Assembly (NCBI GenBank): GCA_035764935.1
Contig: DASTYK010000089.1
Span: 10,732 to 74,731, forward strand
Length of the DNA: 64,000 bases
Origin: Longimicrobiales bacterium
Lineage (GTDB): Bacteria > Gemmatimonadota > Gemmatimonadetes > Longimicrobiales > RSA9
Direction: 5' to 3'
In this document: one piece after another, positions 1,581 to 62,690 of the stretch
Layout of the letters: the number at the start of each line of letters is the position of its first letter
Numbering within the stretch: position 1 is the stretch's first letter
Notes under the pieces: generated by a model
What the model saw: only the letters and a program-made list of their open reading frames with translations
Databases searched by the model: none
Told to the model about the DNA's origin: nothing
Made by a program: the position numbers and the translations under genes

Positions 1581-1596
1581 GGGCATGCACATTGCG
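1581..1596 (+). promoter_or_regulatory. Sigma-54-like -24/-12 element (GGGCATGCACATTGCG)
   Basis: GG at 1582-1583 and GC at 1594-1595 have the exact consensus spacing, with a TTGC -12 box. It lies about 55 nt upstream of the ATG at 1651, which is preceded by the SD AGGTGA. Confidence 0.35.
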
Positions 1597-1650
1597 GCCG
1601 TGTGACGGTCAGACGCCGCACGCCGCGGCACATTCCACAGGTGATTCTAC

Positions 1651-3978
1651 ATGGCCAGACCGGATACGATCGAGGTTGACAGCGATCTTCTCGCGCAGGC
1701 GGAGGCGGGGATCGAGCAGTACCTGGAGCGCATGCGCGCGAGCGGTGAGCTCGCCGAAAACTACTACGATGCCGCCCGCAGCAACGTCTTCCCGAACCTT
1801 CGGCAGTGGGTGACCGATTCCGACATCCGCAGGCTGTCGCCGAACCTGGCAGGCGGTGTGATGGACGCGGTGCGCGAAGGCCGCTGGGAGGAGCTGGTCA
1901 ACGCGTTCGTGCGCGAGGTCAAGTTCGGCACCGGTGGCATCCGCTCGCTGATGGCGTTCCGCAAGGAGGACATCGAGCGCCTCGCCGCGGAGGGCGTCGA
2001 TGCGCGCATCCTGAAGGGCCCGAACACGATCAACAACATCATCGTGCTCAAGTGCGCCTACGGCGTCGCACGCTACCTGGTCGACACGATCCGCGACCGC
2101 ACGCCGCGCGTGGTCGTCGGCTTCGACAGCCGCATCCAGGGCGCCGCCTTTGCCCGCATCATTGCCGAAACGTTCCTCGCCGAGGGCGTCGAGGTATTCC
2201 TGTTCGACGAGGCGGTGCCGTACCCGGAGGTCACGTTCGCGATCCCCTCGATGAAGGCGGATGCGGGCGTGTTCATTTCAGCGAGTCACAACGACTACCG
2301 CTACAACGGCTTCAAGCTGTCGGGGCCCAACGGCTCGCAGTTCTCGCCCGAGGTGCGTGACCAGATCCTGGCGAAGTACATCGCGCCCGCGAAGCCGAAG
2401 GACATCCATCCCGTCGATCTCGACAGCGCCGACGAGGAAACGCTTTCGAATCTGCACTTCCTCGGTGGCAGCGAGCCGCTGCCGGACCACGAGTACTACG
2501 GTCGCGAGCTGGTCGACATGCACTCGCAGCACATCGCGCACATGCGCCGCTTCGTGCTGCGGCAACAGGAGCGTGACCCCGGGATCGCGCGCGACCTGAA
2601 GATCATCTATTCCGCGTTCAACGGCGCCGGCAGGCGGGCGATCCCGCGCCTGCTGAACGATCTCGGCTTCGAGACGATCTACCGCATCCGGAGCCTGGAC
2701 ACGCTGAACGGCCTGTTCCCCGCGTTCAAGAGCACGCCGGGCGAGGAGCAGCAGCCGGACCCGGGCGACTCGCGGGCTGCGGTGATCGCGCTGCGCGAGC
2801 TGGATGCCGAGGCGAAATCACCGCCGAAGGAGTGGGACCGCTATATCTCCTGGGATGATGCCGACCTGCTGGTCGCCACCGATCCCGATGCGGACCGCTC
2901 CGCCGTCATCGTGAAGCCGCCCGCAGGGCTGGTAACGGCGCTCGAGGGCAGACAGCGCCCCGGCATGCTGCGCTACAGCGACCGGCACGTGCTCGTCCCG
3001 GCCGACGACATGTGGACGCTGATCCTCTGGTACCGGATCAAGTTCGGTGCGATCAAGGATCCGGCGCGCAGCTTCATCGCGCTGAGTCATACGACGACGG
3101 ACATGATCGCGCGTCTCGCCGAGCGTGAAGGCCTCGGCTGGCTCAAGACGTGGGTTGGTTTCGGCTGGCTGTCGGCGGGTGTCGCGCACGCGTGGCGCGG
3201 TGCGGAGCTGCCGTCGATCCGCGACGGGCGTCCCGTCGGTGCGGATCCCGACGAGCGCAGCAAGTGTCACCAGATCTTCTTCGACACGACGGGCATGGAG
3301 CCGGGCGGCCGCACGTTCAACGCGGCGACTCTGGAGCAGAGCAACGGCTTCTCGATCCTGGGCGGTCCGCCCGCGGGCTTCCCGGCCGACGACCGTGCAC
3401 TCGGCACCGGCGGCCACGTGCGCGACAAGGACGGCACGTTCGCCACGCTGCTGACGACGGAGGTCGCCGCGTACGCGAAGGAGCAGGGCATCGACCTGAT
3501 GACGCTGCTCGCGCGCGAGATCTACGCGGATCCGGATGTCGGCCTGTTCGTGAACTACTACGAGCCCGACCCGTTCGACGGCGAGTACCCCGGCCTGGCG
3601 GGCGACTCCAAGAAGAAGGCCATCCTCGACAAGTGCATTGCGCTCTACGAGCGTGCGCAGAAGGAGTCTGTCAGCATTGGCGGGCGCGACGTGACCGACA
3701 CGCGCTACTACTGGACGGGCAAGTACGACGGCGCGAACTGGACCGGCTTCCCGGACGAGGGGCTCCGTTTCTACCTGGGCGACCGGCTGAGCTACATCAC
3801 GGTGCGTCCATCGGGAACGAGCAACTCGCTGCGCTTCCACGTCCAGCTCTACGGCGGCCCGGTGGGCGAGGAGCAGGCGTGGGTGCGCCGGCTCGAGCTC
3901 GAAGCCGAGGCGATCGGCATGATCGACGACCTGCGCGCGACGCTGGGCGCACCACGGGAGGCAAACGCGCAGTACTGA
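1651..3978 (+). CDS. Alpha-D-phosphohexomutase family protein (phosphoglucomutase/phosphomannomutase-like, unusually long at 775 aa)
   Basis: Carries a FGTGGIRS substrate-loop-like motif and the active-site serine motif in SASHNDYRYNGFK. The N-terminal region resembles PgcA-type enzymes. Confidence 0.75.
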   Translation: MARPDTIEVDSDLLAQAEAGIEQYLERMRASGELAENYYDAARSNVFPNLRQWVTDSDIRRLSPNLAGGVMDAVREGRWEELVNAFVREVKFGTGGIRSLMAFRKEDIERLAAEGVDARILKGPNTINNIIVLKCAYGVARYLVDTIRDRTPRVVVGFDSRIQGAAFARIIAETFLAEGVEVFLFDEAVPYPEVTFAIPSMKADAGVFISASHNDYRYNGFKLSGPNGSQFSPEVRDQILAKYIAPAKPKDIHPVDLDSADEETLSNLHFLGGSEPLPDHEYYGRELVDMHSQHIAHMRRFVLRQQERDPGIARDLKIIYSAFNGAGRRAIPRLLNDLGFETIYRIRSLDTLNGLFPAFKSTPGEEQQPDPGDSRAAVIALRELDAEAKSPPKEWDRYISWDDADLLVATDPDADRSAVIVKPPAGLVTALEGRQRPGMLRYSDRHVLVPADDMWTLILWYRIKFGAIKDPARSFIALSHTTTDMIARLAEREGLGWLKTWVGFGWLSAGVAHAWRGAELPSIRDGRPVGADPDERSKCHQIFFDTTGMEPGGRTFNAATLEQSNGFSILGGPPAGFPADDRALGTGGHVRDKDGTFATLLTTEVAAYAKEQGIDLMTLLAREIYADPDVGLFVNYYEPDPFDGEYPGLAGDSKKKAILDKCIALYERAQKESVSIGGRDVTDTRYYWTGKYDGANWTGFPDEGLRFYLGDRLSYITVRPSGTSNSLRFHVQLYGGPVGEEQAWVRRLELEAEAIGMIDDLRATLGAPREANAQY

Positions 3979-3993
3979 CGCGCGGAGCATCAC

Positions 3994-7727: not shown

Positions 7728-7767
7728 GGCCGGGTGCGCGCACGGTGCCCCGGCCGCGTTTGTTTCC
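7728..7767 (+). terminator. Intrinsic terminator after arcC
   Basis: Hairpin GGCCGGG(7728-7734)...CCCCGGCC(7748-7755) is followed by GCGTTTGTTTCC. A second perfect hairpin, GGCTTCGC-acga-GCGAAGCC, sits at 7771-7790. Confidence 0.5.
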
Positions 7768-9837: not shown

Positions 9838-10728
9838 ATGCCTGCCGGCACGCTGCTCACCGAGGTGCTCCCGCGCGAGCACATTGTCGTGCCGCTGCGC
9901 GCGACGACGCTGCGCGAGGCACTCGATCAGCTCGCAGCCCGGCTCGAGCAGACCGGCGCCGTGCGCGAACCCGCGGCACTGCGCCGTGCGATGGAGGCAC
10001 ACCGCGCGCGCGACATCGTGCAGATCGGGTCGCGCGCGCTGCTGCCGCACTACCGCACAGAGGCCGTGGACCGGCTTGCGGTCGCGTTCGGCGTGACCGA
10101 GCAGCCACTGGTCGTCGACGGGGGACCCACGCGGGGCGTGCGCATCGTCGTCCTGATCCTCGCACCCGCGACCGCGGCCACACTGTACCTGCAGACGATC
10201 GCCGCACTCGCCCGCCTCTTCCACGACGACGCGCTCACCGAGCGCATCGTGCACGCCACATCCGCCGACGAGGTTCTCGACCTCGCGGAGATCTCGTCCC
10301 TCCGCATCGAGCCGCGCCTGACCGTGCGTGACCTCATGATCCACAGCGCCGACCACGTCAGCGTCGACCAGTCGGTGCGCGAGGCCGTCGACGTCATGGT
10401 CCGCAAGCGCGTGCGCGCACTGCCCGTGGTCAACGAGCAGCGCGAGGTAGTTGGAATCGTCAGCGAATGGGACGTGATGCGCGCGCTGCTGCCGCAGATC
10501 CCGCGCGCCGGCGACGAGGAAGACGACGCCGCGCAGCCCCAGCAGCCGCTGCGCGTCCGCGACGTCATGACCCGCTCCGTCCTCTGCATCTCCGAGGACA
10601 TGGGGCTCGTCGAAGCCGCCAATATGATGCTCAACAAGGACGTCGAGCAGTTTCCCGTGGTGAGCGAGGGCAAGTTCAGCGGCCTGCTCACCCGCAGTGA
10701 CATCATCCGCAAACTCTTTGGACGATAG
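9838..10728 (+). CDS. PTS EIIA type-2 (PtsN-like) domain fused to a CBS-domain pair
   Basis: The N-terminal 150 aa or so has EIIA-2-like layout with a LLPHYR histidine segment. The C-terminal half has two CBS repeats (VRDLM...ALPVV, VRDVM...QFPVV). Confidence 0.55.
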   Translation: MPAGTLLTEVLPREHIVVPLRATTLREALDQLAARLEQTGAVREPAALRRAMEAHRARDIVQIGSRALLPHYRTEAVDRLAVAFGVTEQPLVVDGGPTRGVRIVVLILAPATAATLYLQTIAALARLFHDDALTERIVHATSADEVLDLAEISSLRIEPRLTVRDLMIHSADHVSVDQSVREAVDVMVRKRVRALPVVNEQREVVGIVSEWDVMRALLPQIPRAGDEEDDAAQPQQPLRVRDVMTRSVLCISEDMGLVEAANMMLNKDVEQFPVVSEGKFSGLLTRSDIIRKLFGR

Positions 10729-11394: not shown

Positions 11395-11423
11395 TTGACA
11401 CTCCACGAGAAATCCAGCAAATT
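11395..11423 (+). promoter_or_regulatory. Possible sigma-70-type promoter for the yceD-rpmF-plsX-fab operon
   Basis: Perfect -35 TTGACA (11395-11400), a 17-nt spacer and a weak -10 CAAATT (11418-11423). The ATG at 11432 has no SD, so the transcript could be leaderless or near-leaderless. Confidence 0.3.
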
Positions 11424-11431
11424 ACACGACT

Positions 11432-11941
11432 ATGCTGACAGTCGATCTGGGCCGGCTGCAGCGGTCGGTGAAGCTGGAGATCGAGGGGCAGCTGGACCCG
11501 GACGACCCCGCGCTCGCGGATCTGAATCTCCGGCTGGCGGAGCCGCTGCAGGTGAGGCTCGAGGCGCACCAGGCAGGGCCCGACGTGCTGGTCCGGGGGC
11601 GTATGCGGGGTGAGCTGGAGCTCGAGTGTGCGCGCTGCCTGAAGCCGGTACGCCACACGCTGGATGAAGAGGTCACCTTCCTCTACGTCGAGGGGGTCGA
11701 CGAGACGGCCGCGGAGGACCAGGAAGTGTATCCGCTGCCGGAGACGGGCTGGACGCTGGATCTCGGACCGGCGCTGCGTGAGCACCTGGTGCTTGCGGCG
11801 CCGGCACATGTCTTGTGCCGCGAAGAGTGCAGAGGGCTCTGCCCGACGTGCGGCACGGATCGCAACGAGGCGCCGTGCGAATGCGAGGCGTCGGACGTGG
11901 ACGATCGCTGGGCTGCGCTCCGGCGGCTCGGCTCCGAATAG
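11432..11941 (+). CDS. yceD: YceD/DUF177 family protein (large-subunit rRNA accumulation protein)
   Basis: Acidic 169-aa protein with C-terminal cysteine clusters CREECRGLCPTCG...APCEC. It holds the canonical position directly upstream of rpmF. Confidence 0.8.
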   Translation: MLTVDLGRLQRSVKLEIEGQLDPDDPALADLNLRLAEPLQVRLEAHQAGPDVLVRGRMRGELELECARCLKPVRHTLDEEVTFLYVEGVDETAAEDQEVYPLPETGWTLDLGPALREHLVLAAPAHVLCREECRGLCPTCGTDRNEAPCECEASDVDDRWAALRRLGSE

Positions 11942-17440: not shown

Positions 17441-17473
17441 TGCAGCGGGTCATTCCCGCGCCTATTCTACCCG

Positions 17474-47382: not shown

Positions 47383-47401
47383 TTGGCCGGCAGCCAATGC
47401 A
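47379..47401. promoter_or_regulatory. Perfect inverted repeat TGCATTGGC-N5-GCCAATGCA (operator candidate)
   Basis: 9-bp arms whose left arm overlaps the -12 TTGCA box. A separate 10-bp palindrome, GGCACGTGCC, lies at 47351-47360. Confidence 0.4.
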
Positions 47402-47423
47402 GATCGAGCCGGCTGCTGTTCCG

Positions 47424-49592: not shown

Positions 49593-49594
49593 CG

Positions 49595-52500: not shown

Positions 52501-53770
52501 CGCGCAGATCGTGCAGGGTGCCGCCACCTTCACCCCGGTCAACAAGCGCTACACGGAGATCCAGGGACAGCTCACGCTTGCAGACGACCGCATCGTGATC
52601 GATTCGCTCAGCGCACTCTCCGACGGTACGGCGCTGGTTACCGGAGTCATCACGCTCGAGCAGCTCGACGAGCCCGTGTTCGACCTCGCGGCGAACCTGA
52701 ACGACTTCGAGGTCATGGGCGTCGATAACGAGACGGATGCGGAAATGCGTGGCACGCTCGAGCTGACCGGTCCCATCGATGGGCTGCTGCTCACGGGCAC
52801 CGTCGGCGTAACGGACGGCGCCGTGCTGATCCCGCAGTTTACGCAGTCGACGCTGGACGAGGAGCTGTTCCTTTCCCCGGGCGAGACCTTCGACGATCCG
52901 CTGGCGCCGGCTTCGAGCTCACTGCTGGCGAACCTCACCATCAGCAACCTGCGCGTGGAGATCTATCCCGATACGTGGGTCGTGGTGCAGAACCAGGCAC
53001 GGGCGCAGCTGGGAGGTACGCTCCTGGTCAACAAACAGGGCGACGTGTGGCGCGTCCTCGGCGAGCTGGAAGGCGAGCGTGGCACCTACACGCTCGCTGC
53101 CGGGCCCGTGCTGCGGCAGTTCGAAATCAGCTATGCGCGTCTGCTCTTCCGCGGCGATGAGGAGCTGAATCCCGCGATCGAGATCACTGCGACGCGCACG
53201 ATCATCGACCAGAGCGGTCGACCGGTCGAGATCGACGTCAACATTGGCGGAACGATGCGGCAGCCTTCGCTCGGGCTGGCCAGCGGCAACGCGGCCAATG
53301 TCCCCGAGTCGGAGCTGCTCAGCTTCCTGTTCTTTGGACAGCCCAGCTACGCGCTCGGCGGAGGGGGAATCGCCAGTGGTGCACTGCTCGGTGGTGTCGC
53401 GGAGTTCCTGAGCCTCGGCATCGGTGAATCCTTCGCGGAGGCCGGGCTGCCGTTCGACCTGTTCCAGCTCAGGCTGGCGGGGATCGGCGGCGCGGGTGAT
53501 CCCACGGCCAGCCTCGTGATCGGCCGCGAGATCGTCGACGATGTGTTCCTGACCGTGGAGTCGTACCTGAACGCGCTGTTCGGCGGGAGCTCGACCGGCT
53601 ACGACGCCTGGGCGATCAGGCTCGAGTGGGCGTTCGACCGCCGCTCGAGCCTGAGCACTGGTGTCGAGCCGGTGAACAGCGCGCTACTGCTGCGGGGCGC
53701 GGGACTCGACCCGGCTATCTCTCCAAGACAACAATTCTTTGTCTCGCTCCGTCGCCGCTGGCTGTACTGA
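49595..53770 (+). CDS. tamB: Translocation and assembly module protein TamB (DUF490 C-terminus)
   Basis: 1391 aa with a single N-terminal TM anchor (VVAALLAGLAIGFVLIGLWL) and a long beta-rich repetitive body. The C-terminal region (LTVESYLN...WAIRLEWAF...RRRWLY) is TamB-like. Paired with an Omp85 gene. Confidence 0.75.
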   Translation: MSNGEVRRSDVVAALLAGLAIGFVLIGLWLTARPGPDTATLADPDSTARSERRIEATTDTVAADEARGGYGMIARTDRRVAERLAADPVRTAPLQGALRIRARDVRWLESGGRQWATAPALSGVLDANAFRGGDVVLRNVVLERADILLTQTAEGAPWNYERVLEEMLGSDGRQSGPSRRFEIHGLRVVDARIDVRLPDRRMLFQDLSATASRVRLAGPGLNDPDLQIAQLATTLVLPAQDGDTRLAITGADAELRIVDNGVAFDIARAGIDDTQLAELSGVWANDLPGYGVRATGRALDVRFADIRFLAPERIPENGTASFRFAVDPVDDVRTAIELSEIDASSGDSRVSGAIDAMLRSDGFAVQSADLRVDPLSLALLEQLLGRELPYGGTLAGTIRGSGGDIRFDLDARLTSDATTTPLVTNLAGNVFFGDDGFALRGLVATLDDAPLAALRAVVPGLPFGGTVSGRVALEGMPGDAPLNLDVRLTLAEGVFNVQGVVDLTSSVPSYDLEGTILGVNLQTVFTTFAPPALLTGRFTLDGRGFDPATANARVSLGGRFTGWETGANDVVRASAVVAGGAVRIDTLTMRLATLTLAGAGRWQFVSPQQGAITYDFAISSLRPWAPYLPMADSMASGSLASRGTVNGPLDAIRIAGTLNGSELELGTGWSARSLEAEYDATIGPAVPRVQVLATARELGTPTAGMFYLITADVDLASPDFALELSGLRQEDQAEAVELIATGSVPYEGLRSIVVERAHLDVADGLWRLAQPATIAWGGGDGVHVSGLEFRNEEGGGLVAVNGRVLPLERADVTLDVENLPAAEVQQLLGRDPILTGDLWASGTIRDLGTAPDVDLTFRLDSGAVMDVALSRFAGDVEYRNGALVTTAEAVFDTAGVIDMELALPLRLDVADSVAVGMGESGAVRGRIVADRVLLTPFEPLFRGVYDLQGYVSGAVVIGGTVDDPQLEGSAQIVQGAATFTPVNKRYTEIQGQLTLADDRIVIDSLSALSDGTALVTGVITLEQLDEPVFDLAANLNDFEVMGVDNETDAEMRGTLELTGPIDGLLLTGTVGVTDGAVLIPQFTQSTLDEELFLSPGETFDDPLAPASSSLLANLTISNLRVEIYPDTWVVVQNQARAQLGGTLLVNKQGDVWRVLGELEGERGTYTLAAGPVLRQFEISYARLLFRGDEELNPAIEITATRTIIDQSGRPVEIDVNIGGTMRQPSLGLASGNAANVPESELLSFLFFGQPSYALGGGGIASGALLGGVAEFLSLGIGESFAEAGLPFDLFQLRLAGIGGAGDPTASLVIGREIVDDVFLTVESYLNALFGGSSTGYDAWAIRLEWAFDRRSSLSTGVEPVNSALLLRGAGLDPAISPRQQFFVSLRRRWLY

Positions 53771-54710
53771 TCGGCTGCGTCGACAGGGCGCGCATGGCCG
53801 CGTCGAGGATGGCACTGCGAACACGCACGATGCTCTCGTCTGCCACGCAGCGACCCGGCGTGATCGGGTTGTGCTCGCGCAGTTCCCGCTCGACGGCGCG
53901 CGGCGTGCCCGGCCAGATCAGGATGGCGTCCGCATCGCGTGCGGCTGCACGGGCGCCATCGACGCCGTGCTCCACGCGGACGTTTGCAGCGACGTCCTGC
54001 CCCACGACTTCGCCGTGCTCGATCGCGCGGCGCAGCCGCTCGGCGGCATCCGCGGTCGGCGCGACGATGAGCAGGCGGCCGGACGTCGAATGCTGCCGTA
54101 GCTCCTCGACCACCTCGCGGGCGCAGGAGACTTCCACGACCTGCCGGCTGCCGGCGATCCTGCGCACCGTGCTGCCGTGGTATGGGGTAGTCACGAGGAA
54201 GGGTGCGGTCGCGACGAGCGGCTCCGTCGGATCAATGCCCTCGAGCTGCACGGGGACCGCGTTGACGCCGAGGCGCTCCGCGATCTCGAGCGCGATCGCT
54301 TCCGCCTGCGCGGCGTCATGCTCGAGCACCGGAATGCGTTGCTTCTCGATGAGCGCGACGGCCTGGATCAGCTTCAGCATCGTCGACGTGTCGAGTCCGA
54401 TGGCGCGCGCGCCCTCGTAGGCGTTCTCGAGCCAGCGGCGATGCAGACGCTCGAGCGGGCCGCCGGTCCGCTCCGGCTCCGAACCGCGGAGGTAGACGCC
54501 CGAGCGCGGCCGCACGCGTACCAGACCTTCCATCTGCAGGCGACGATAGGCAGCGGCGGCCGTCTTGCGGTCTACATTTTCAGCGTCCGCGACGTCGCGG
54601 ATGCTCGGCAGCCGTTCACCGGGTGCCCAGCGTCCGAGATAGAGGCCGGAAACAATCCGATCGCGGAGCTGATCCACGATCATCGAACCGGCGGCCTGCT
54701 GACGAGCCAT
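53715..54710 (-). CDS. GntR-family transcriptional regulator with an atypical roughly 250-aa C-terminal domain
   Basis: Winged helix LPSIRDVADAENVDRKTAAAAYRRLQMEGLVRVRPRSGVYL. The start is the ATG at 54710, behind the SD GGAGG. The 3' end overlaps tamB by 56 nt (convergent). Confidence 0.8.
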   Translation of the reverse strand: MARQQAAGSMIVDQLRDRIVSGLYLGRWAPGERLPSIRDVADAENVDRKTAAAAYRRLQMEGLVRVRPRSGVYLRGSEPERTGGPLERLHRRWLENAYEGARAIGLDTSTMLKLIQAVALIEKQRIPVLEHDAAQAEAIALEIAERLGVNAVPVQLEGIDPTEPLVATAPFLVTTPYHGSTVRRIAGSRQVVEVSCAREVVEELRQHSTSGRLLIVAPTADAAERLRRAIEHGEVVGQDVAANVRVEHGVDGARAAARDADAILIWPGTPRAVERELREHNPITPGRCVADESIVRVRSAILDAAMRALSTQPISTASGDGARQRIVVLER

Positions 54711-54753
54711 ACATTGCCTCCGTGATACGTGAAGCGTAATCAGTGACACGGGT

Positions 54754-54769
54754 TGCAAGATCGGCACCA
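54754..54769 (-). promoter_or_regulatory. Sigma-54-like -24/-12 element (TGGTGCCGATCTTGCA on the minus strand)
   Basis: GG-N10-GC spacing with a TTGCA -12 box, about 45 nt upstream of the gntR ATG. Confidence 0.3.
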
Positions 54770-54785
54770 GACGGCGAGGTGGGGC

Positions 54786-56549
54786 ATGGCGACAGGAGTT
54801 CTGGCGTTGTTGCTGCTGGTCAGCCAGCAGGCACAGCCCGCCCCGGAGGCGATCCGGGAGGATGCCCGACGCGTGGAGGCCGCCTACGAGCGGGCAGCGC
54901 GTCGCTTCGCGCCGGTCGTCGGACAGCGCACGGCCGACAGCCGCTGTGACGAGATCGTCGGCCGCTTCTGCATCAATTTCGATGTCGAGCCCGGCAAGCC
55001 GCCGGATGAGCCCGCCCGCATCACCGACGCGCGTCGCGAGGCGATCGACAGCCTGCGCCGGCAGTTCTCCGTGGTGCCCGGGGACCCCGCCATAGCGGGG
55101 CCGCTGGTCCGCCTGCTGATCGAAGACGCCCGGCCTTCCGAGGCAGTCGCTGCTGCACTGACGTTCGACGTCGAGACCACCGACTCCGTGTACGGCCCGC
55201 TCCTGGCCGGCTTTGCCCTGCACAACGCCGGGGAGGACAGCGTGGCGGACGCGTATTTCGCGCGTGCCATCGAGCACATGGACGCGACGCAGCGGCAGCG
55301 CGTGCGCTCCCTCGACTGGCTGCTCCGTGACGACGAGCGCGACCGCTATCACGAGCTCTCCCCCGCCGCGCGCGCGTCGTACGAGCAGACGGTGTGGACG
55401 CTTTCGGATCCGCTGTACCTCACGGCCGCCAACGAGCTGTGGCTGGAACATGTCGCCCGCCACACCTACAGCCGGCTCATGGAGCGCGTGCGGGTCGTGC
55501 GTGACATGGTGAGCTGGAGACGCGATCTCGAGCAGCTCACGATCCGCTACGGCATGCCGTACCGGCGTGGCCGCTATCACGGCGTCCGCTTCGATCAGTC
55601 CGGGATCGTCGAGTATTTCCATCCGGAGCAGCTCACCTACATGGTGAGCGATTTTCTGACCAGGGGGATGCCGCCGCAGCCGCCGCCGGGTGAGACGTGG
55701 CCGCTCGATCCGGACCGTCCGCGGTCCGCGTTCGCGCCGCCCGCCGTGCGCAGCATGGACGCGCTGCCGCACCAGGTCTCCCGCATCCCGATGGCAGATG
55801 GCTGGGTGGTGCGCGTGGACGGCGCGTTCGGACTGGACACGCTCGCTCGCGTGGCCCCGCCGCCCCTACCCGGCGACACCGCGCAGCCGCCACCACCGGA
55901 TCCGTCCACGGTCGACGGTGGGCTGTGGCTGCTCGACATGAATCGCAATGCGCAGCAAGCGGGGAGTGCACGTGCGGTGAGCCCGCTGAACGGCGACACC
56001 GCACACGTTACCCTCGCCGTCGCCGCCGTGCCGGGCGAGTACGTGTACTCGTTCGAAGGCCTCGAACCTGAGACGCGCACTGCTCGCAGGGCTCGGTACG
56101 CACTGAGCATCGAGGAGCCGGAGTCGGGACTGCGCGTGAGCGACGTGATCATCACCCGTCCCTTCGACGGCGATCTCCCCGAAAACCAGGACAGCCTCGC
56201 CGATCTGCCGCTCGCCGATCTCTCGCTGGAACGCGACACCCAGGTCGGCATTTTCGCGCAGGCGGCCGATCCCGGCCCGGGCAGCTACGAGGTCGAGATC
56301 GCCATACGCCCCGCCGACCGTGGATCCCTCCCCGGCCGCTTTTTGCGGTGGCTGGGACGCTCGCTCGGCCTGAGTGACGAGCCGGTGCCGCCGCGCGTCT
56401 CGTGGCGCGTCGTGCACGACGAGGGGCCGCTCGTGCTCGCCACCGACCTCACGCTGACCGGCACGCGCACCGGGCTGCAGATCATCGAGGTGGCGATCGA
56501 GGGGGAGCGCGGCCGCGGCGTCGGCAGACGGCTGGTCAGGATCGAATAA
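54786..56549 (+). CDS. Secreted protein with a divergent GWxTD-like domain
   Basis: Signal-like MATGVLALLLLVSQQAQPAP. The central segment YEQTVWTLSDPLYLTAANELWLEHVARHTYSRL ... SWRRDLEQLTIRYGMPY parallels the FW..DP..T..NE...R / GWxTD...YG.P pattern. Confidence 0.45.
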   Translation: MATGVLALLLLVSQQAQPAPEAIREDARRVEAAYERAARRFAPVVGQRTADSRCDEIVGRFCINFDVEPGKPPDEPARITDARREAIDSLRRQFSVVPGDPAIAGPLVRLLIEDARPSEAVAAALTFDVETTDSVYGPLLAGFALHNAGEDSVADAYFARAIEHMDATQRQRVRSLDWLLRDDERDRYHELSPAARASYEQTVWTLSDPLYLTAANELWLEHVARHTYSRLMERVRVVRDMVSWRRDLEQLTIRYGMPYRRGRYHGVRFDQSGIVEYFHPEQLTYMVSDFLTRGMPPQPPPGETWPLDPDRPRSAFAPPAVRSMDALPHQVSRIPMADGWVVRVDGAFGLDTLARVAPPPLPGDTAQPPPPDPSTVDGGLWLLDMNRNAQQAGSARAVSPLNGDTAHVTLAVAAVPGEYVYSFEGLEPETRTARRARYALSIEEPESGLRVSDVIITRPFDGDLPENQDSLADLPLADLSLERDTQVGIFAQAADPGPGSYEVEIAIRPADRGSLPGRFLRWLGRSLGLSDEPVPPRVSWRVVHDEGPLVLATDLTLTGTRTGLQIIEVAIEGERGRGVGRRLVRIE

Positions 56550-56666
56550 CGGGCGAGTCGGAGCAGTGGCTGCGTGTCGGGGCAAGCTTCGGCGGGCCAT
56601 CCGCGGGTGCAGCTTTCCGGGTTGCCTCGGCCTGGCCCGGCGTGGACCTGCGACCCGAGCTGACGC

Positions 56667-57443
56667 TCAGCTGCCCGGCGTGAAAAGCGGCACGGTCAGG
56701 CCGATCATCAGCCGCACGCCGCTCGTGTAGCCGACCTCATCCACGCGCGATTCCGCCTCGGGATCGGGCACCGCACGCGGCACGGCCGATTCCGAGATCG
56801 GGGTGCGCGCGATGTGGCTGCTCAGCTCGAAGTTGAGCAGCAGCCGGTGCCGCTCGAGCGGGATCACCGCACCCACGCCCAGCACGCCAGCCAGGCGCCG
56901 TTGCCGGTCGCCGTTGAACGCCATCTCTGCCGGCTCCGGCACGACCTCTTCTTCGCCGGTTCTCAGTCGATACTCGATTGCGCCGAGCCCGGCCACCGCG
57001 TACGGCTCCACGCGGCCGAGTGAAAGCGGGAGCCGGAACAGCAGGTCGACGTCGTACATCCAGACGTCGAGGCGCGACAGCGTCGGTGCAGTGTCCTCGT
57101 TGCTCTCGCCCAGCGCGGTGTACGTCTCCGTGCTGCGCAGCTCGAAGCGCGTCGGGGTCCATGCCCCCTGCACCCGCACCGCAACGCGCCGCCCGAGCCA
57201 GGCAGAAACCGCAGCCGAGCCGAGCACGCTCGTACTTGCCGAAAGGCGCTGCTCGAAGGGCTGGTCAGGACCAAGCCATTCTGCTTCCCTGCGGAAATCA
57301 CTGAACGCGATGCCGCCGCCGAACACGCTCAGCGCGACAACGCCTCGATGGAAGAGATAGTCGGCGGAAACCGCCTGGGCCTGCCCGCTCTGCGGCAGCG
57401 CCCCGAAACAGCAGCAGAGCAGGATCGCGATACGGCAGCGCAC
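56667..57443 (-). CDS. Outer-membrane beta-barrel protein (OmpA-like/porin-type 8-10 strand barrel)
   Basis: Signal peptide MRCRIAILLCCCFGALPQSGQAQA and an alternating hydrophobic beta-strand pattern. Has the strong SD GAGGAG. Confidence 0.55.
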   Translation of the reverse strand: MRCRIAILLCCCFGALPQSGQAQAVSADYLFHRGVVALSVFGGGIAFSDFRREAEWLGPDQPFEQRLSASTSVLGSAAVSAWLGRRVAVRVQGAWTPTRFELRSTETYTALGESNEDTAPTLSRLDVWMYDVDLLFRLPLSLGRVEPYAVAGLGAIEYRLRTGEEEVVPEPAEMAFNGDRQRRLAGVLGVGAVIPLERHRLLLNFELSSHIARTPISESAVPRAVPDPEAESRVDEVGYTSGVRLMIGLTVPLFTPGS

Positions 57444-57475
57444 TGGTTCTCCTCGCCGGTGACAGGACGGCGTGG

Positions 57476-57491
57476 GGCAAGCGGCGGGCCA
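57476..57491 (-). promoter_or_regulatory. Sigma-54-like -24/-12 element (TGGCCCGCCGCTTGCC on the minus strand)
   Basis: Exact TGGC-N7-TTGC, about 34 nt upstream of the barrel-protein ATG at 57443. Confidence 0.4.
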
Positions 57492-57537
57492 GTCCCGGCG
57501 CGCGCCGCCGAGGGTCTTCAGGGCAGGCCGCGCGGGC

Positions 57538-57645
57538 GTTCCCTTCCCTGCGCTCCCGCGGTCAGCGGCCGGGCGGCGTGGGCTGTCCCTTTCCTGCGCT
57601 CCCGGCCGTCAGCGGCCGGCCGCCGCGGCTTTTCCCTTCGCTGCG
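57538..57645. repeat. About 2.3 tandem copies of a 46-47-bp unit spanning the lgt stop codon
   Basis: Unit A (57538-57584), unit B (57585-57630, roughly 80% identical) and a partial third copy (57631-57645). Each full unit contains TCAGCGGCC, which in unit B is the reverse complement of the lgt stop codon and its last codons. Confidence 0.7.
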
Positions 57646-58469
57646 TTTGCGGGTGCTGCGCGGAACGGCGGCACGTTCGCCTGCTTGAACCACAGGGCGA
57701 GTGCGATGATGACCAGCAGGATGCTGACACCCTGGGACGTGGAAAGGCCGAACAGGAAGCGGTCGTCCTTGGCACGCACGAATTCGATGAGGAAACGCTC
57801 GATCGCGTACAGCCCGAGGAACAGCGAGAACAGGCGTCCCGGCGGCATCGCCTTCCTGCCCAGGTGCCACAGCAGTGCGAACAGAGGCAGGACGAGCGCG
57901 ATCTCGTAGAGCTGGGTGGGATGCACGGCAAGCACGGCTTCGTTCGGGAGGCCGGGGGGCACGTCCACACCAATTGCACGGAAGTGCCCGGCCGTGCTGG
58001 GCGGCGCGCCATTCGGGAACGCCACGCCGTACCAGCCGTCGGTGGGATTGCCGTAGTCGTCACCGACCAGGAAACAGCCCATCCGACCGATCGCGATCGA
58101 CAGGAAGAGCGCCGGTGCTGTCGCGTCGAACATCGGCGCGACCGGCAATCCGCGGCGCCTGACCTGCCAGTAGTACGCGAGGACGCCACCGATCAGGCCG
58201 CCGTACCAGACGAGGCCACCCCGGCTGAAGATCTCGCCCACGGGGTTCGCCGCGACGTCGTCCAGGTGCAGCAGCAGGTAGTAGATCTTGGCGCCGAGGA
58301 TGCCGCCGATCGCGATGCCCGCGAGCATGTCCCAGATCAGCTCACGCTCCAGGCCATAGCGTTCGAGCTGCCGCCCCGTCGCCCACGCACCGGCTATGAA
58401 CGAGAGGAACATCATGACGCCGAAGGACGTCACGACGAAGTCGCCGATGCGAAACAGCTCTGGGAACAT
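57609..58469 (-). CDS. lgt: Prolipoprotein diacylglyceryl transferase
   Basis: FGVMMFLSFIAG, GGLVWYGGLIGG and IGRMGCFLVGDDYG motifs. Confidence 0.92.
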   Translation of the reverse strand: MFPELFRIGDFVVTSFGVMMFLSFIAGAWATGRQLERYGLERELIWDMLAGIAIGGILGAKIYYLLLHLDDVAANPVGEIFSRGGLVWYGGLIGGVLAYYWQVRRRGLPVAPMFDATAPALFLSIAIGRMGCFLVGDDYGNPTDGWYGVAFPNGAPPSTAGHFRAIGVDVPPGLPNEAVLAVHPTQLYEIALVLPLFALLWHLGRKAMPPGRLFSLFLGLYAIERFLIEFVRAKDDRFLFGLSTSQGVSILLVIIALALWFKQANVPPFRAAPANAAKGKAAAAGR

Positions 58470-58517
58470 GCACTCGATCCGGGTCCGGGACGCGCGCCCT
58501 CGTGGCGCAGGCGGCCT

Positions 58518-58546
58518 AACATAGCGGCGCCCGCAGGTCGCCTCAA
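58518..58546 (-). promoter_or_regulatory. Possible sigma-70-type promoter for lgt
   Basis: On the minus strand: TTGAGG (58546-58541), a 17-nt spacer and TATGTT (58523-58518). Confidence 0.35.
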
Positions 58547-58548
58547 CG

Positions 58549-58564
58549 TGGCAGCGCCCTTGCG
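58549..58564 (+). promoter_or_regulatory. Sigma-54-like -24/-12 element (TGGCAGCGCCCTTGCG)
   Basis: The closest match to TGGCAC-N5-TTGC in the window. About 69 nt upstream of the nadE ATG, which has the SD GGAGG. Confidence 0.4.
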
Positions 58565-58631
58565 CCGTCCCGAGCGCCGGTTACCATAGCCCCGCGCCGT
58601 CGCAGGCGGCGCGTGCACGCAACGGAGGCGC

Positions 58632-60368
58632 ATGAGCACGCTCCGCATCGGGCTCGCCCAGATCAACCCGACCGTCGGCGACTTCGACGGCAATCTTTCC
58701 ATCATCGAGGGCTGCCTCGAGCAGGCGCGGGAGCACGCGGTCGATCTCGTCGCGTTTCCCGAGCTCGCCCTTTGTGGCTATCCGCCCGAGGACCTGTTGC
58801 TCAAGCCGTCGTTCGCGGCCGCGAACCGCCGCTCGCTCGAGCGGCTGGCGGCCGGCAGCGGTGGCATGACCGTCGTCACAGGCTTCGTCGACCGGCAGAC
58901 GGACCTCTTCAATGCCGCCGCCGTGCTCCACGACGGCCAGCACATCGCGACGTACCACAAGCAGCGGCTTCCCAACTACGGCGTCTTCGACGAGCTGCGC
59001 TACTTCAAGCCTGGCACCGGGGAGGTCCTCGTGCGGGTGCGGGGCGCGTGGGTTGGAGTCACCGTCTGCGAGGACATCTGGCTCCCGGGCGGACCGGTCG
59101 GCCGCCTCGCGCGGGCCGGCGCAGACGTGATCGTCAACATCAATGCGTCGCCGTTTCATCGCGGCAAAGCCGCCGCGCGCCACCGGATGCTCGGCACCCG
59201 CGCCTTCGATCACGCCTGTTTCCTTGCCTACGTCAACATGGTCGGCGGGCAGGACGAGCTCGTGTTCGACGGCGACTCCAGCATCTACGACCCCGAGGGC
59301 GACCTGCTCGCCGAGGCGACTCCCTTCACCGAGGAGCTGCTCGTCGCAGACCTCGAGCTGGAGCAGGTCTTTCGCGCACGACTGCACGACCCGCGGCGCC
59401 GTCACACGATGCGGCAGGAGCCGGACAGCGTGGTCCGCCATTCACCCGCGCAGCCACCCGCGCCTGACACGCGCCCGGAAGCACCGCCCACGGCGATCGT
59501 CGTGCACGACGAGCTGGCCGAGGTCTACCAGGCACTCGTCGTCGGAACGCGCGACTACCTCCGGAAGAATGGATTCCAGCACGTCCTGCTCGGCCTTTCC
59601 GGCGGACTCGACTCGGCACTCGTCGCCACCATCGCGGTGGACGCACTCGGCGCGGACTGCGTCACCGGCGTGCTGCTGCCTTCCCCGTACTCGAGCGAAC
59701 ACTCGCGCAGCGATGCTCTCGCACTGAGCGGCAACCTGGGCATCGACACACTCACGATCCCGATCGAGGGGCCCTTTGCCGCTTTGAAAGAGGCCCTCGC
59801 ACCCGCGTTCCAGGGTCGAGAGCCCGACGTGACCGAAGAGAACCTGCAGGCCCGCGTCCGCGGTGTCCTGCTCATGGCGCTCTCGAACAAGTTCGGCTGG
59901 CTGCTTCTCACCACGGGCAACAAGAGCGAGCTCGCAACCGGCTATGCAACGCTGTACGGTGACATGGCAGGCGGTTTCGCGGTGCTCAAGGACGTCCCCA
60001 AGACCCTCGTGCAGGCGCTCGCACGCTGGCGCAACGAGCGTGACGGAGACGACGCCGACGGGCCGATCCCGCGCAACACGATCGAGAAGCCGCCCTCCGC
60101 AGAGCTCCGCCCCGACCAGTACGACACGGATTCACTCCCGCCGTACGCGGTGCTCGACCCCATCCTGGAACGCTACGTCGAGCAGGACTGGTCCATCCCC
60201 GAGATCATTGCCGAGGGCCACGACCCCGACGTCGTCCGGCGCGTTGCACGGCTCGTCGACACCAGCGAGTACAAGCGACGCCAGGCACCGCCCGGCGTGA
60301 AAATCACCGAGCGCGCCTTCGGCAAGGATCGCCGCGTGCCGATTACGTCGCGGTTCCGCAGCGAATAG
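58632..60368 (+). CDS. nadE: Glutamine-dependent NAD+ synthetase
   Basis: N-terminal CN-hydrolase domain (FPELALCGYPPEDL, VCEDIW) and a C-terminal synthetase domain (LGLSGGLDSAL, GNKSELATGY). Confidence 0.93.
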   Translation: MSTLRIGLAQINPTVGDFDGNLSIIEGCLEQAREHAVDLVAFPELALCGYPPEDLLLKPSFAAANRRSLERLAAGSGGMTVVTGFVDRQTDLFNAAAVLHDGQHIATYHKQRLPNYGVFDELRYFKPGTGEVLVRVRGAWVGVTVCEDIWLPGGPVGRLARAGADVIVNINASPFHRGKAAARHRMLGTRAFDHACFLAYVNMVGGQDELVFDGDSSIYDPEGDLLAEATPFTEELLVADLELEQVFRARLHDPRRRHTMRQEPDSVVRHSPAQPPAPDTRPEAPPTAIVVHDELAEVYQALVVGTRDYLRKNGFQHVLLGLSGGLDSALVATIAVDALGADCVTGVLLPSPYSSEHSRSDALALSGNLGIDTLTIPIEGPFAALKEALAPAFQGREPDVTEENLQARVRGVLLMALSNKFGWLLLTTGNKSELATGYATLYGDMAGGFAVLKDVPKTLVQALARWRNERDGDDADGPIPRNTIEKPPSAELRPDQYDTDSLPPYAVLDPILERYVEQDWSIPEIIAEGHDPDVVRRVARLVDTSEYKRRQAPPGVKITERAFGKDRRVPITSRFRSE

Positions 60369-60411
60369 CCGTTTCCTCCACCGTTCTCGGTGGCCTCTGT
60401 GCGCTCCGTGG

Positions 60412-60448
60412 TAGAAAAGAAAGGCGGCGGCCGGAGATGGCCGCCGCC
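60412..60448 (-). terminator. Rho-independent terminator of lemA (minus strand)
   Basis: Perfect 10-bp stem GGCGGCGGCC / GGCCGCCGCC with a 6-nt loop. On the minus strand it is followed by TTTCTTTTCT. Confidence 0.75.
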
Positions 60449-60457
60449 CAGGCGAGG

Positions 60458-61051
60458 CTAGTTCTGGAACTCGACCTGTGGTGCCTGTCGCGCCGACTCG
60501 GGGGCTTCGAACGGCTCCTTGCGATCGGCGCCGATCACTTTCGCCGTGATCACCTGCGGGAACTGCCGTACGTACGTGTTGTAGGTCGCGACTGCCTCGT
60601 TGTAGTCGCGTCGAGAGACGGCGAGGCGGTTCTCCGTCTCGGTCAGCTCGTCCTGCAGCGCGCGGAAATTCTGGTTCGCGTTGAGCTGCGGGTATGCTTC
60701 GACCGCGACGTTGATGAACAGGCGGAGCTGCTCGCTGACCGCGTCGGCGGCCGCGCTCAGCTCGTCCGCTTCTGCGTCTCCCTGCACCGCCTGCTGCAGC
60801 TGTTCGCGCGCGCCGTTGAGACCGCTGCGGGCCTGCGCGACCTGCGTGAACGTCTCCTGCTCGAACTCTGCCGCCTCCTCGACGGTGCGCACGAGGTTCG
60901 GGATCAGGTCGTTGCGCCGCATCAGCTCCGTCTCGATGTTGGCGCGGTTCTGCTCCGTCAGCTCATCGAGCTGCTGGATCCGGTTGTAGCCGCATCCGCT
61001 GAGGGTGAACAGCAGAGGCAGCAGGACCAGGGTACGCTTCATCCGCGTCAC
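60458..61051 (-). CDS. lemA: LemA family protein
   Basis: Lipoprotein-like signal LLFTLSGCGYN and the typical LemA helices (RRNDLIPNLVRTV, YPQLNANQNF, RRDYNEAV). Confidence 0.9.
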   Translation of the reverse strand: MTRMKRTLVLLPLLFTLSGCGYNRIQQLDELTEQNRANIETELMRRNDLIPNLVRTVEEAAEFEQETFTQVAQARSGLNGAREQLQQAVQGDAEADELSAAADAVSEQLRLFINVAVEAYPQLNANQNFRALQDELTETENRLAVSRRDYNEAVATYNTYVRQFPQVITAKVIGADRKEPFEAPESARQAPQVEFQN

Positions 61052-61758
61052 TCCTTGAAGGCGTCCACGTACGCCGCGGTCCGCTCCGCGGCGTGATGAT
61101 ACGACTCGACCAGCTCGTCGGTCAGGCGCAGGCGCAGTGTGCTCCTGCCGACGCGTGCGCGATGGGCGGCAAGCAGCGCGTCCGGTCGGGCGCCCACGAG
61201 GCGTGTGCCTGCCGCGATGACGTCCTCCATGTGCCCGGGCACCGTCTCGCCGGCCAACCGGAGCGCAGCGCGCAGGTACGTAGCAAGCGACGGCAGCGTT
61301 GCCATCAGCAGCCCACCGATCAGCTCGGGCTCACCCGCCGCCGCGAGCAGGCCGCTGCGCAACTGCATGACCTTACCTCGGAGCTCGTGCTCCGCCTGTG
61401 TTCGCAGTGCACCCCGATCGACGGCGTGCTGCGTAACCGGGTCCTCGCCTGCCAGCACCTCGTGCGCGTCGTGCATGTCGGCGATCTCGATCGCGAAGAC
61501 GTCCGCCGCCCGCTGCCATTCGTGCGCTTCCAGGAGCAGCGGAACCGCGCCCGTTTCGCGCCAGCGTTTCGCGTGGAAAACGGCCCGCTCCAGCAGCGCC
61601 GCATTGAGGTCGTCGAGCAGCACGAGCAGGTTGATGTTGCTCACGCCATCGATGTGCTCGCCCCGCGCGACGGAGCCGAAGAGAAGGACGCTCTTCAGGT
61701 TCGAGCCGAAGTCCCGCTCCAGCTCGCGCGCGATCGCGAGTGCTTGCTCATTCACCAT
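61048..61758 (-). CDS. Nucleotidyltransferase-fold protein (Pol-beta superfamily) with a helical C-terminal domain and altered catalytic acidic residues
   Basis: LLFGSVARGEHIDGVSNINLLVLL matches hG[GS]-x11-[D]h[DE]h except that both acidic positions are Asn. The start is the ATG at 61758. Overlaps lemA by 4 nt. Confidence 0.65.
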   Translation of the reverse strand: MVNEQALAIARELERDFGSNLKSVLLFGSVARGEHIDGVSNINLLVLLDDLNAALLERAVFHAKRWRETGAVPLLLEAHEWQRAADVFAIEIADMHDAHEVLAGEDPVTQHAVDRGALRTQAEHELRGKVMQLRSGLLAAAGEPELIGGLLMATLPSLATYLRAALRLAGETVPGHMEDVIAAGTRLVGARPDALLAAHRARVGRSTLRLRLTDELVESYHHAAERTAAYVDAFKE

Positions 61759-61769
61759 TCCCGATCTCC

Positions 61770-62642
61770 TCACCAGCTGCGGCCGGCGCCGCCGCCGCCG
61801 AAGCCGCCACCGCCGCCGAATCCGCCAAAGCCGCCACCGAACCCACCGCCACCGAAGCCGCCACCGAACCCACCGCGACCAAACCCGCCGCCTCTGCGGC
61901 CCGAGCCCAGGATGAGGGGCAGCAGCCACCAGGCGCTGCCGCCGCCGCCACGACCACCGCGCCCGCCACGACCACCGCGCCCCATGCTGCTCATGATCAG
62001 AAACACGAGTACGACGAGGAAGAAAACCAGGCCGCCGCCGCCGTCGTCGCCCCGCTGCGTCTGCGTCTGCGGGAGCTGAGGGAGGTCACCGGTCAGCTCG
62101 AACTCGAAACGCTCGGCATACATCTGGGCGAGTGCAATGACGCCCATCAGGATGCCCGTGCCGTAGTCCTGCCGCTGGAACTCGGGCACCATGAAGCGAT
62201 CGGCAACGCGACCCGCCTCCGCAGCGGTGATGAACGTCGTCGTTCCCGTGCCGGTTTCGATCTTCAGATGACCGCGTCCGTCGTCCGATGTTTCCTTCGG
62301 GATCACGAGCACGACGATGCCGGTGTTGCGGGTGGGGTCGCCGGGGTCGCCTTTCTGGCCCACGCCCCATTGCCGCCCGATCTCGAGTGCAAGCTCGTCC
62401 CGGGTGCGTCCCTGGAGTGTCGGCATGGTGACGACCGCGATCTCACCGCCCGACTTCGCGCGCACCTCCTCGACGATGCGCGTGATCTGCGTTTCCTGCT
62501 CGGCAGGAATCACGTTCGCGAAGTCGTTGACCATGCCGACGGGCGCGGGGATCTGCACCCGTTGTGCGTGCAGCAGCACCGGCGCGGGCAGCAGCAGGGC
62601 CGCGATGGCGGCAGCGCACAGAATGGATCGGAACCGTCTCAT
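61770..62642 (-). CDS. TPM-domain protein (YgcG-like) with a TM helix and a Gly/Arg/Phe-rich tail
   Basis: Signal peptide, then VNDFANVIPAEQETQITRIVEEVRAKSGGEIAVVTMPTL (TPM/phosphatase-like). This is followed by a TM helix and a GRGGRGG...GFGGGFGG tail. The start is the ATG at 62642. Confidence 0.8.
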   Translation of the reverse strand: MRRFRSILCAAAIAALLLPAPVLLHAQRVQIPAPVGMVNDFANVIPAEQETQITRIVEEVRAKSGGEIAVVTMPTLQGRTRDELALEIGRQWGVGQKGDPGDPTRNTGIVVLVIPKETSDDGRGHLKIETGTGTTTFITAAEAGRVADRFMVPEFQRQDYGTGILMGVIALAQMYAERFEFELTGDLPQLPQTQTQRGDDGGGGLVFFLVVLVFLIMSSMGRGGRGGRGGRGGGGSAWWLLPLILGSGRRGGGFGRGGFGGGFGGGGFGGGFGGFGGGGGFGGGGAGRSW

Positions 62643-62674
62643 CGAATTCGGATTCGCATGGGGGACGCAGGCGG

Positions 62675-62690
62675 TGCAAGCGTCGGGCCG
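62675..62690 (-). promoter_or_regulatory. Sigma-54-like -24/-12 element (CGGCCCGACGCTTGCA on the minus strand)
   Basis: GGC-N7-TTGCA, about 34 nt upstream of the TPM gene ATG at 62642. Confidence 0.35.

Follow-up and report, generated by a model that had tools for sequence, protein, structure and literature searches.

Canonical sigma-54 promoters have the form TGGCACG-N4-TTGCW, and genuine sites can be told from background by their orientation and by a distance of 0-200 nt to the start codon (Francke et al. 2011, PMC3162934). The same study associated sigma-54 with genes for lipopolysaccharide (LPS), lipoprotein and exterior biosynthesis, and linked its gene, rpoN, to lptABC and kdsCD. Here we describe an intact rpoN and a set of sigma-54-type elements in a 64-kb stretch of DNA from a Longimicrobiales bacterium (Gemmatimonadota; contig DASTYK010000089.1), hereafter called the window. 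Judged from their sequence and conservation, six or seven of the ten sites that a first-pass annotation of the window had flagged look like conserved sigma-54 promoter elements, mostly located before cell-envelope genes.

The elements share with canonical sigma-54 promoters the GG-GC spacing of one helical turn, co-orientation with a gene, mostly 0-200 nt away, and a canonical rpoN within the window; the flanking consensus (T before GG, C after it, TTGC followed by A or T) is matched to a degree that varies from site to site. They differ in that they are known here from sequence alone, that no activator gene or site lies nearby, that some of the -24 halves are weak and that several predicted leaders are just 2-5 nt long. 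The locus also fits the 'bacterial exterior' theme (PMC3162934), both in the position of rpoN within a kdsCD/lptCAB cluster and in its predicted envelope targets: tamAB, a secreted protein, LemA/TPM, a sugar-phosphate mutase and the Kdo/Lpt operon. Gemmatimonas appears only in tables in the main text of that study, which does not describe tamAB or a site at the head of the rpoN operon as targets; a 2025 survey of sigma-54 regulons (PMC12316311) does not mention Gemmatimonadota and does not describe these targets either. Searches of the literature for Gemmatimonadota together with sigma-54, RpoN or transcription start sites returned nothing relevant. Taken together, the promoter architecture appears to be that of ordinary sigma-54 sites, with targets that are in part new and in a phylum that has not been studied.

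Two further systems invite comparison. In Myxococcus xanthus sigma-54 use is very broad and deletion of rpoN is lethal, according to work cited in PMC12316311; the window resembles it in the high local density of sites before non-nitrogen, cell-envelope genes, here seen in one 64-kb window and its orthologues. The repertoire of activators differs, since Gemmatimonas aurantiaca (T-27) encodes sigma-54 with ~9-12 enhancer-binding protein homologues (supplement of PMC3162934), compared with an average of ~33 activators in the Delta-proteobacteria, which then included Myxococcus (PMC3162934). In Escherichia coli, PMC4591121 describes sigma-54 holoenzyme binding DNA in a transcriptionally inactive state. 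The silent or repressive binding treated there and in PMC4551910 resembles the situation at kdsB, where the element lies in or beside a sigma-70 promoter and may compete or block there; unlike the E. coli cases, the putative kdsB site heads the operon of sigma-54 itself and is conserved across the phylum, with the sigma-70 hexamers shifting around it. An arrangement in which the sigma-70 promoter heading the rpoN operon carries a sigma-54 site is possibly new.

The window has a base composition of 68.5% G+C. Its gene map, built from codon log-odds and checked with Pfam, leaves only ~3.2 kb of intergenic DNA, and the + strand holds most of the genes. Among intergenic TTGC tetramers directed towards a gene, 10/17 (59%) carried GG at offset -10/-9; with the start of the gntR gene corrected to 54710 the count becomes 10/16, as the first-pass annotation had reported. 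In comparison, GG stood at offset -10 before 0/8 intergenic tetramers directed away from genes and before 20/305 in coding DNA (14/119 sense, 6/186 antisense), a contrast that the annotation had proposed as a check on its proposal. Fisher's exact test of 10/17 against 20/313 for all other TTGC gave P = 1e-7, and for 10/17 the binomial P was 5e-6 even with p = 0.118. The enrichment was confined to offset -10, GG being found at 0-3 of 17 tetramers for the remaining offsets from -25 to +19. Over the whole window GG-N8-TTGC occurred 30 times against 30.35 expected from shuffles, indicating that the signal lies in placement and orientation and not in abundance. Sites were also scored at five flanking positions (T before GG, C after it, TT before GC, A/T after). 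Of the sites matching at least 4/5 of these positions, 6 fall in the ~3 kb of gene-oriented intergenic DNA and 10 in the whole of the coding DNA. Chance or base composition as the source of the pattern is rejected by the profile over offsets and by the contrast between sequence categories.

The ten 16-mers listed in the first-pass annotation each occur once, at the coordinates and on the strands given there, and its four complete intergenic TGGC-N7-TTGC matches were recovered; of the five in the window, the fifth is coding, at 18705. The coding GGC-N7-TTGC noted at 2139-2153 is present. The assignment of all ten sites to sigma-54 stood for six stand-alone sites, while the site before kdsB proved real but differently placed, the nadE and mqn sites turned out to belong to sigma-70 promoters and the site at 44210 was not conserved. 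Conservation in relatives, which had been suggested as a further check, was found for the six stand-alone sites and kdsB, and was lacking for 44210 and nadE. The genes concerned, described as housekeeping and envelope genes, are mainly envelope genes and not arbitrary housekeeping ones.

Conservation was assessed in close relatives (L001 and L082-L093, 72-93% protein identity) and in two distant, still syntenic Gemmatimonadota loci (L094, with 49% Omp85 identity, and L095, with 54%). A scan of species-representative genomes with TamB returned one syntenic contig, from an uncultured Gemmatimonadaceae metagenome-assembled genome, with ~80% nucleotide identity over 45466-63900; homologues of the window Omp85 are labelled Gemmatimonadota or Longimicrobiales. 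The six stand-alone elements, with the number of loci that have an exact GG-N8-TTGC at the orthologous position, are:

47367-47382 (+): TGGCGTATGGCTTGCA, the best element, before tamA (Omp85)-tamB, matching 5/5 flanking consensus positions; 8/8 loci
54754-54769 (-): TGGTGCCGATCTTGCA, before the gene of a GntR-family regulator (start corrected to 54710), kept as TGG-N8-CTTGCA/G in 7/7 loci; exact motif in 7/7 loci
57476-57491 (-): TGGCCCGCCGCTTGCC, before the gene of a 258-aa secreted protein, a conserved island in 5/5 loci between flanks that are ~36% identical; exact motif in 5/5 loci
1581-1596 (+): GGGCATGCACATTGCG, before a 775-aa PGM/PMM-like gene (then UPF0182 and others); 4/4 loci
43999-44014 (+): GGGTGCGGCTCTTGCT, 394 nt upstream of ligD, target uncertain; 4/5 loci
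62675-62690 (-): CGGCCCGACGCTTGCA, before the TPM-nucleotidyltransferase (NTase)-LemA operon, its genes identified by Pfam; 3/3 loci

Identity to the window was 0.76-1.00 in the 17-nt element; for the 33 nt on its upstream side it was 0.27-0.58, and for the 35 nt on its downstream side 0.27-0.66. The motif-anchored comparison fixes 6/17 positions, and conservation at the remaining eleven still exceeds that of the flanks. The GG-GC spacing is unchanged in all orthologues of the six accepted sites. In the distant loci GG and TTGC are kept and the spacer is rewritten (for gntR, TGGTGCCGATCTTGCA versus TGGACTTTTTCTTGCA; for tamA, TGGCGTATGGCTTGCA versus TGGCTTGTCGCTTGCA), and the tamA, gntR and 258-aa-protein sites persist in relatives with ~50% Omp85 identity. 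The consensus score was 5/5 for tamA, 4/5 for gntR, the 258-aa gene and TPM, and 3/5 for PGM, the window copy of the kdsB element and the ligD-upstream site. The distance from TTGC to the start codon is 17-59 nt at five sites and 394 nt for the ligD-upstream one, and a relaxed scan of the window found no TAnnnT 16-18 nt past TTGC at any of the six. The intact rpoN and the placement, strict spacing, orientation and conservation of the motif are direct observations.

The tamA site is kept as CTGGCGTAT-N3-TTGCA in 8/8 loci, reaching relatives with 49-54% Omp85 identity, and its identity is 0.93 in the motif versus 0.34 in the upstream flank. A conserved ATG, the start used by 731-aa homologues, lies 18-19 nt past TTGC in the window, L082, L087 and L088. 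The gntR site has a different spacer in the distant relatives (TGGACTTTTTCTTGCA); its TTGC lies 46-50 nt before a conserved upstream ATG where that start is called, and likewise in the window with the start at 54710. For the 258-aa gene, the predicted start site is followed by a GGAG Shine-Dalgarno sequence ahead of the GTG, and in distant loci the gene starts 17-19 nt past TTGC. Start codons 17-19 nt past TTGC (tamA in close loci, the 258-aa gene in distant loci) are incompatible with a -35 role, as the start site would fall inside the gene; they are compatible with a sigma-54 start ~15 nt after the first T and a very short leader. The first-pass label of outer-membrane (OM) barrel for the 258-aa protein is unverified, as neither Pfam nor NCBIfam gave a name to it or to the 588-aa, 499-aa and 313-aa proteins. 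The PGM site is kept as GG-N8-TTGCGGCC in 4/4 loci, L092 having TGGCCTCGCAATTGCG, with an identity of 0.76 in the motif versus 0.27 in the upstream flank. The TPM site is identical in L001 and L093, the flanks diverging in L001, and the 267 nt of upstream DNA that L093 adds past the right window edge lack the motif. The ligD-upstream site is kept as GGTGCGGCTCTTGCT in L082, L087 and L088 (as GGTGCGCATCTTGCC) and is absent from the distant L094.

Other features accompany two of these sites. In the TPR/tamA intergenic region, every close relative keeps an inverted repeat, CCGCCCGCG...CGCGGGCGG (47202-47231), which can still be made out in L094 and L095. Its position is 135-165 nt upstream of the tamA element, within the predicted 5' leader of the divergent TPR gene and downstream of the TTGACG-N17-TACGTT promoter of that gene; a hairpin in the leader RNA and a binding site for an activator are both conceivable. 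At the C-terminus of the TPM-domain protein (61770-62000, -), a hydrophobic segment is followed by a glycine-rich tail of ~80 residues containing GGFGG and GRGG repeats.

The rpoN gene, which the first-pass annotation had correctly placed in the same stretch, encodes a complete sigma-54:

32819-34279 (+): rpoN, sigma-54, 486 aa, with Pfam domains Sigma54_AID, Sigma54_CBD and Sigma54_DBD

The protein has region I, the core-binding domain, the helix-turn-helix (HTH) and an RpoN box, ARRTVAKYR, at residue 464, indicating that it should recognise standard -24/-12 sequences and depend on an AAA+ activator. No recorded protein matched the exact sequence of the window RpoN. The gene is the last of the nine in kdsB-pyrG-kdsA-kdsC-kdsD-lptC-lptA-like-lptB-rpoN, which are separated by gaps of -8 to +29 nt. 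In 12/14 high-GC kdsB loci with enough sequence, rpoN lies 8.5-9.9 kb downstream on the same strand. Elsewhere in the window, between sucD and ndk, a gene at 9838-10728 (+) encodes a PTS EIIA-2 (PtsN-like) domain fused to a CBS pair; it does not adjoin rpoN, unlike ptsN in Proteobacteria.

Sigma-70 promoters were scanned on both strands with a relaxed pattern, TTGnnn-N16-18-TAnnnT, a stricter scan being poorly suited to such GC content (2 matches in the window, neither intergenic). The relaxed pattern gave 7 matches in the window, of which 5 lie in gene-oriented intergenic DNA, indicating that sigma-70 promoters are easily recognised here. The promoters assigned to this class, two of them at sites flagged for sigma-54, are:

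24576-24604 (+): TTGACA-N17-TACATT, promoter of the kdsB...rpoN operon, by direct reading and relaxed scan
TPR gene (-): TTGACG-N17-TACGTT, by relaxed scan
58546 to 58518 (-): TTGAGG-N17-TATGTT, promoter of lgt, by relaxed scan
58549-58587 (+): the nadE site, with -35 TTGCGC (58560-58565), N16 and -10 TACCAT (58582-58587)
17429-17468 (+): the mqn site, TTGCAG (17440-17445), N17, TATTCT (17463-17468), by relaxed scan of the window

The yceD gene has a near-canonical, conserved variant, TTGACA-N18-AAATTA (11395-11434), with the ATG ~9 nt further on. At nadE the -10 box and spacer are kept in L001 and L087, L087 having a 1-nt insertion between GG and TTGC; the complete motif is absent from L094 and scores 2/5 in L095. 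The promoter is back-to-back with that of lgt, and the conserved CCTCAA beside the nadE TGGC is explained by the -35 box of this divergent promoter. Given the conserved TTGCGC-N16-TACCAT and the broken spacing in L087, a sigma-54 site at 58549 is rejected. At mqn the GTG start at 17474 lies 6 nt past the TATTCT -10 box, so that the gene looks leaderless, and given TTGCAG-N17-TATTCT with this GTG the weak site at 17429 is likewise rejected for sigma-54. By chance GG is expected at ~2/17 TTGC, consistent with the two sites reassigned to sigma-70. Genes that look leaderless or nearly so are yceD, mqn (17440-17476) and tamA (47378-47399, with the ATG 19 nt past TTGC).

A third flagged site was rejected as a sigma-54 promoter on other grounds:

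44210-44225 (+): TGGCGGTGTCGTTGCC, probable chance match, not found in L082, L087, L088 or L094

The same 15-mer, TGGCGGTGTCGTTGC, occurs at 18705-18719 inside the second mqn gene and at 44210-44224 upstream of ligD; on a rough estimate, chance alone should produce several pairs of identical 15-mers in 64 kb of such composition.

The element before kdsB had been read as a simple sigma-54 promoter, a view that its position downstream of the canonical sigma-70 promoter TTGACA-N17-TACATT contradicts:

24620-24635 (+): CGGCGCGGATCTTGCG, sigma-54-consensus element, ~+8 to +23 in the kdsB transcript made from the sigma-70 promoter

Scanning metagenomes with KdsB yielded 80 loci. In 29 high-GC loci (KdsB 47-65% identical) yTGGCGTG-N4-TTGCAT was found 45-77 nt before kdsB, matching TGGCACGr-N3-TTGCW at ~14/16 positions, and nothing comparable was found in ~30 low-GC loci of other lineages. 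A textbook sigma-70 promoter (TTGACA or TTGCCC, N17, TAnnTT) is present in all the loci that have this element; its end lies 2-3 nt ahead of the element, except in the window, L005 and L009, where the distance is 14 nt. In two sets of loci (L033, L037, L041, L044-L049 and L052; L034, L039, L042 and L051) CGGCACG-N4-TTG[AT] overlaps the sigma-70 hexamers of a leaderless kdsB promoter, and one of these more distant high-GC groups has an inverted repeat, GGCACGG...CCGTGCC, that extends over both the -10 box and the GTG start. In the window only, GGCGCG and CGCGCC (24621-24656) enclose an 11-nt loop and are followed by GCCCC and a T7 run, a terminator- or attenuator-like arrangement; the kdsB leaders of the closest metagenome relatives, L005 and L009, lack the T run.

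We judge it probable that the accepted sites are sigma-54 binding sites or promoters, and from them we infer sigma-54 binding, start sites, activator dependence and autoregulation. Two promoter classes would then lie side by side in the window, a sigma-70 class (TTGnnn-N16-18-TAnnnT) serving kdsB, mqn, nadE, lgt and the TPR gene, with yceD as a near-canonical variant, and a sigma-54 (RpoN) class (yTGGC-N7-cTTGCw) that would stand alone upstream of six units: tamA-tamB, the 258-aa protein, TPM-NTase-LemA, the GntR-family regulator, the PGM-like operon and the ligD-upstream target. RpoN-RNA polymerase would sit at the predicted sites as a closed complex, and transcription would begin only once an AAA+ enhancer-binding protein, encoded elsewhere in the genome, had remodelled it. 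Starts ~12 nt downstream of GC would give leaders of roughly 2-45 nt. For the kdsB element the most likely role is either autoregulation by negative feedback, in which sigma-54 holoenzyme would compete with sigma-70 polymerase or block it at the head of its own operon, or that of a tandem second promoter.

Several observations weigh against this interpretation. As the first-pass annotation had noted, the window lacks an enhancer-binding protein gene (no Sigma54_activat Pfam match, no GAFTGA in six frames), and none was found in 912 kb of retrieved loci either. A shared upstream activator site was not apparent among seven sites, which had 9-mers in common no more often than shuffles. Several -24 halves are mediocre consensus matches (GGGCAT, CGGCCC, GGGTGC), and with two of the ten sites being sigma-70 -35 boxes, GG at offset -10 alone is not diagnostic. 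At kdsB, the sigma-70 promoter directly precedes the element, placing it at or just after the sigma-70 start site, inside the transcript; in two more distant locus groups yGGCACG-N4-TTG is kept, the -12 C is lost (TTGA/TTGT) and the sigma-70 hexamers shift register. The literature searched held no start-site, binding or expression data for any Gemmatimonadota. Moreover, in 397 kb of more distant high-GC kdsB loci GG at offset -10 was found at 13/126 TTGC, excluding the kdsB element, as at other offsets, so that the excess is shown for the 64-kb window and not genome- or phylum-wide; the window may have been noticed for its local site density. Since the window itself has only sigma-70 promoters around kdsB, the 397-kb test is neutral on a genome-wide excess.

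The main rival explanation is that the motif is the operator of a DNA-binding regulator controlling a small envelope regulon, either a winged-helix response regulator, for which direct repeats T(G/T)GC 11 bp apart would be the target, or the neighbouring GntR-family protein. TGGC-N7-TTGC is formally a direct repeat with one-helical-turn spacing, the GntR-family gene is found among the sites and carries one itself, and neither an activator gene (window and 912 kb of loci) nor an activator binding site (nine-mer comparison) was found. We nevertheless consider an operator unlikely, because the asymmetric halves fit sigma-54 specifically, with TGGC upstream, TTGCw downstream and an extended TGGCrYG at kdsB and tamA, and because the sites are always co-oriented with the gene. 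GntR operators, moreover, are typically palindromic. No separate promoter was detected at the six sites, some of which lie 17-19 nt before the start codon and leave no space for a downstream -10 box. The same geometry bears on the suggestion that all sites are sigma-70 TTGC-type -35 boxes or chance matches with a functionless upstream GG. This holds for nadE (TTGCGC-N16-TACCAT) and mqn (TTGCAG-N17-TATTCT), and it accommodates both the ~2/17 GG expected by chance and a motif total equal to the shuffle expectation. For the set as a whole it is very improbable: 10/17 far exceeds the chance expectation of 2, at the remaining sites TAnnnT is missing from the distance where it would be needed, relatives with diverged spacer and flanks retain GG and the exact spacing, and a -35 box at TTGC would put the start of transcription further downstream than the start codons found 17-19 nt past TTGC.

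For the kdsB element alone, an RNA feature has to be weighed: the sigma-70 transcript would begin with a hairpin, GGCGYG...CGCGCC, that stabilises or regulates it and that would act in the window as an attenuator because a T7 run follows. In 29 loci a canonical sigma-70 promoter does set the start at the element or immediately ahead of it, in ~18/30 minimum-energy folds the 5' GGCGYG is paired with a CGCGCC-like segment further downstream, with U-G, U-A and C-G variants, and in the window the hairpin (24621-24656) is followed by GCCCCTTTTTTT. Against this, the leader folds are no more stable than shuffles of their downstream part (mean z = -0.18), the loop wwwTTGCAT is conserved as well as the stem, and the element matches the sigma-54 consensus at ~14/16 positions in the 29 loci. 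Rfam at gathering thresholds found no match in the window or 12 loci, and in other locus groups the 5' arm of the hairpin lies upstream of the start site. We therefore hold an RNA role to be improbable and return to sigma-54 binding as the preferred reading of the element.

Promoter-like elements were recognised in twelve intergenic regions of the window, six of the sigma-70 type and six of the sigma-54 type, the latter clustering in the envelope-gene region downstream of rpoN (44-63 kb) and before the PGM-like gene. A more far-reaching proposal is that in Gemmatimonadota sigma-54 is a near co-equal, possibly essential, factor for outer-membrane and envelope biogenesis that sets its own level through a site in the kdsB-lpt-rpoN operon, its promoter elements having been kept since deep splits in the phylum. 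Sigma-54 would in that case drive tamAB, the secreted or outer-membrane protein, LemA/TPM and sugar-phosphate supply, and the site through which it sets its level would lie within the sigma-70 promoter or the leader of that operon. We offer this tentatively and regard it as doubtful.

The Gemmatimonadota are abundant soil bacteria for which we found no published promoter, start-site or sigma-54 regulon data. If the sigma-54 interpretation is true, transcription of tamAB and similar genes for outer-membrane assembly would be gated by an activator throughout the phylum, and the 'exterior' theme of sigma-54 would gain new targets; it would also suggest that rpoN is hard or impossible to delete in these bacteria. 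A sigma-54 consensus heading the operon of sigma-54 itself would constitute a simple, testable feedback circuit, and being able to read both promoter classes from sequence in this lineage would aid the annotation of metagenome-assembled genomes.

The neighbourhood of these sites has further conserved features. L094 and L095 keep the gene order of the 34-60 kb region (glycosyltransferases, YfhO, methyltransferase, LPG-synthase-like, GT2, (ligD), TPR, tamA, tamB, gntR, 588-aa, 258-aa, lgt, nadE) despite an Omp85 that is only 49-54% identical, and the envelope-gene neighbourhood downstream of rpoN is unusually stable. Between the acyltransferase gene and ligD (43874-44403) lie 4/6 of the DnaA-box matches in the window (TTWTCCACA, <=1 mismatch), in one orientation, at 43928, 43961, 44338 and 44348. 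An AT-rich block, GTTTACATAATGCATATTATGCGAAG (44363-44388), comes next and contains the inverted repeat CATAAT/ATTATG; this block and the adjoining TTTCCCACA are conserved even in the distant L094. An origin of replication (oriC) was considered here; there is no GC-skew switch at the cluster, which is therefore probably not oriC and may be a DnaA- or repressor-controlled ligD promoter. Finally, a likely intrinsic terminator separates the amino-acid kinase gene from sucC (7728-7767, +); it consists of a GC-rich hairpin, GGCCGGG...CCCGGCC, and the adjoining downstream GCGTTTGTTTCC, and is conserved, being present in L090 as well.

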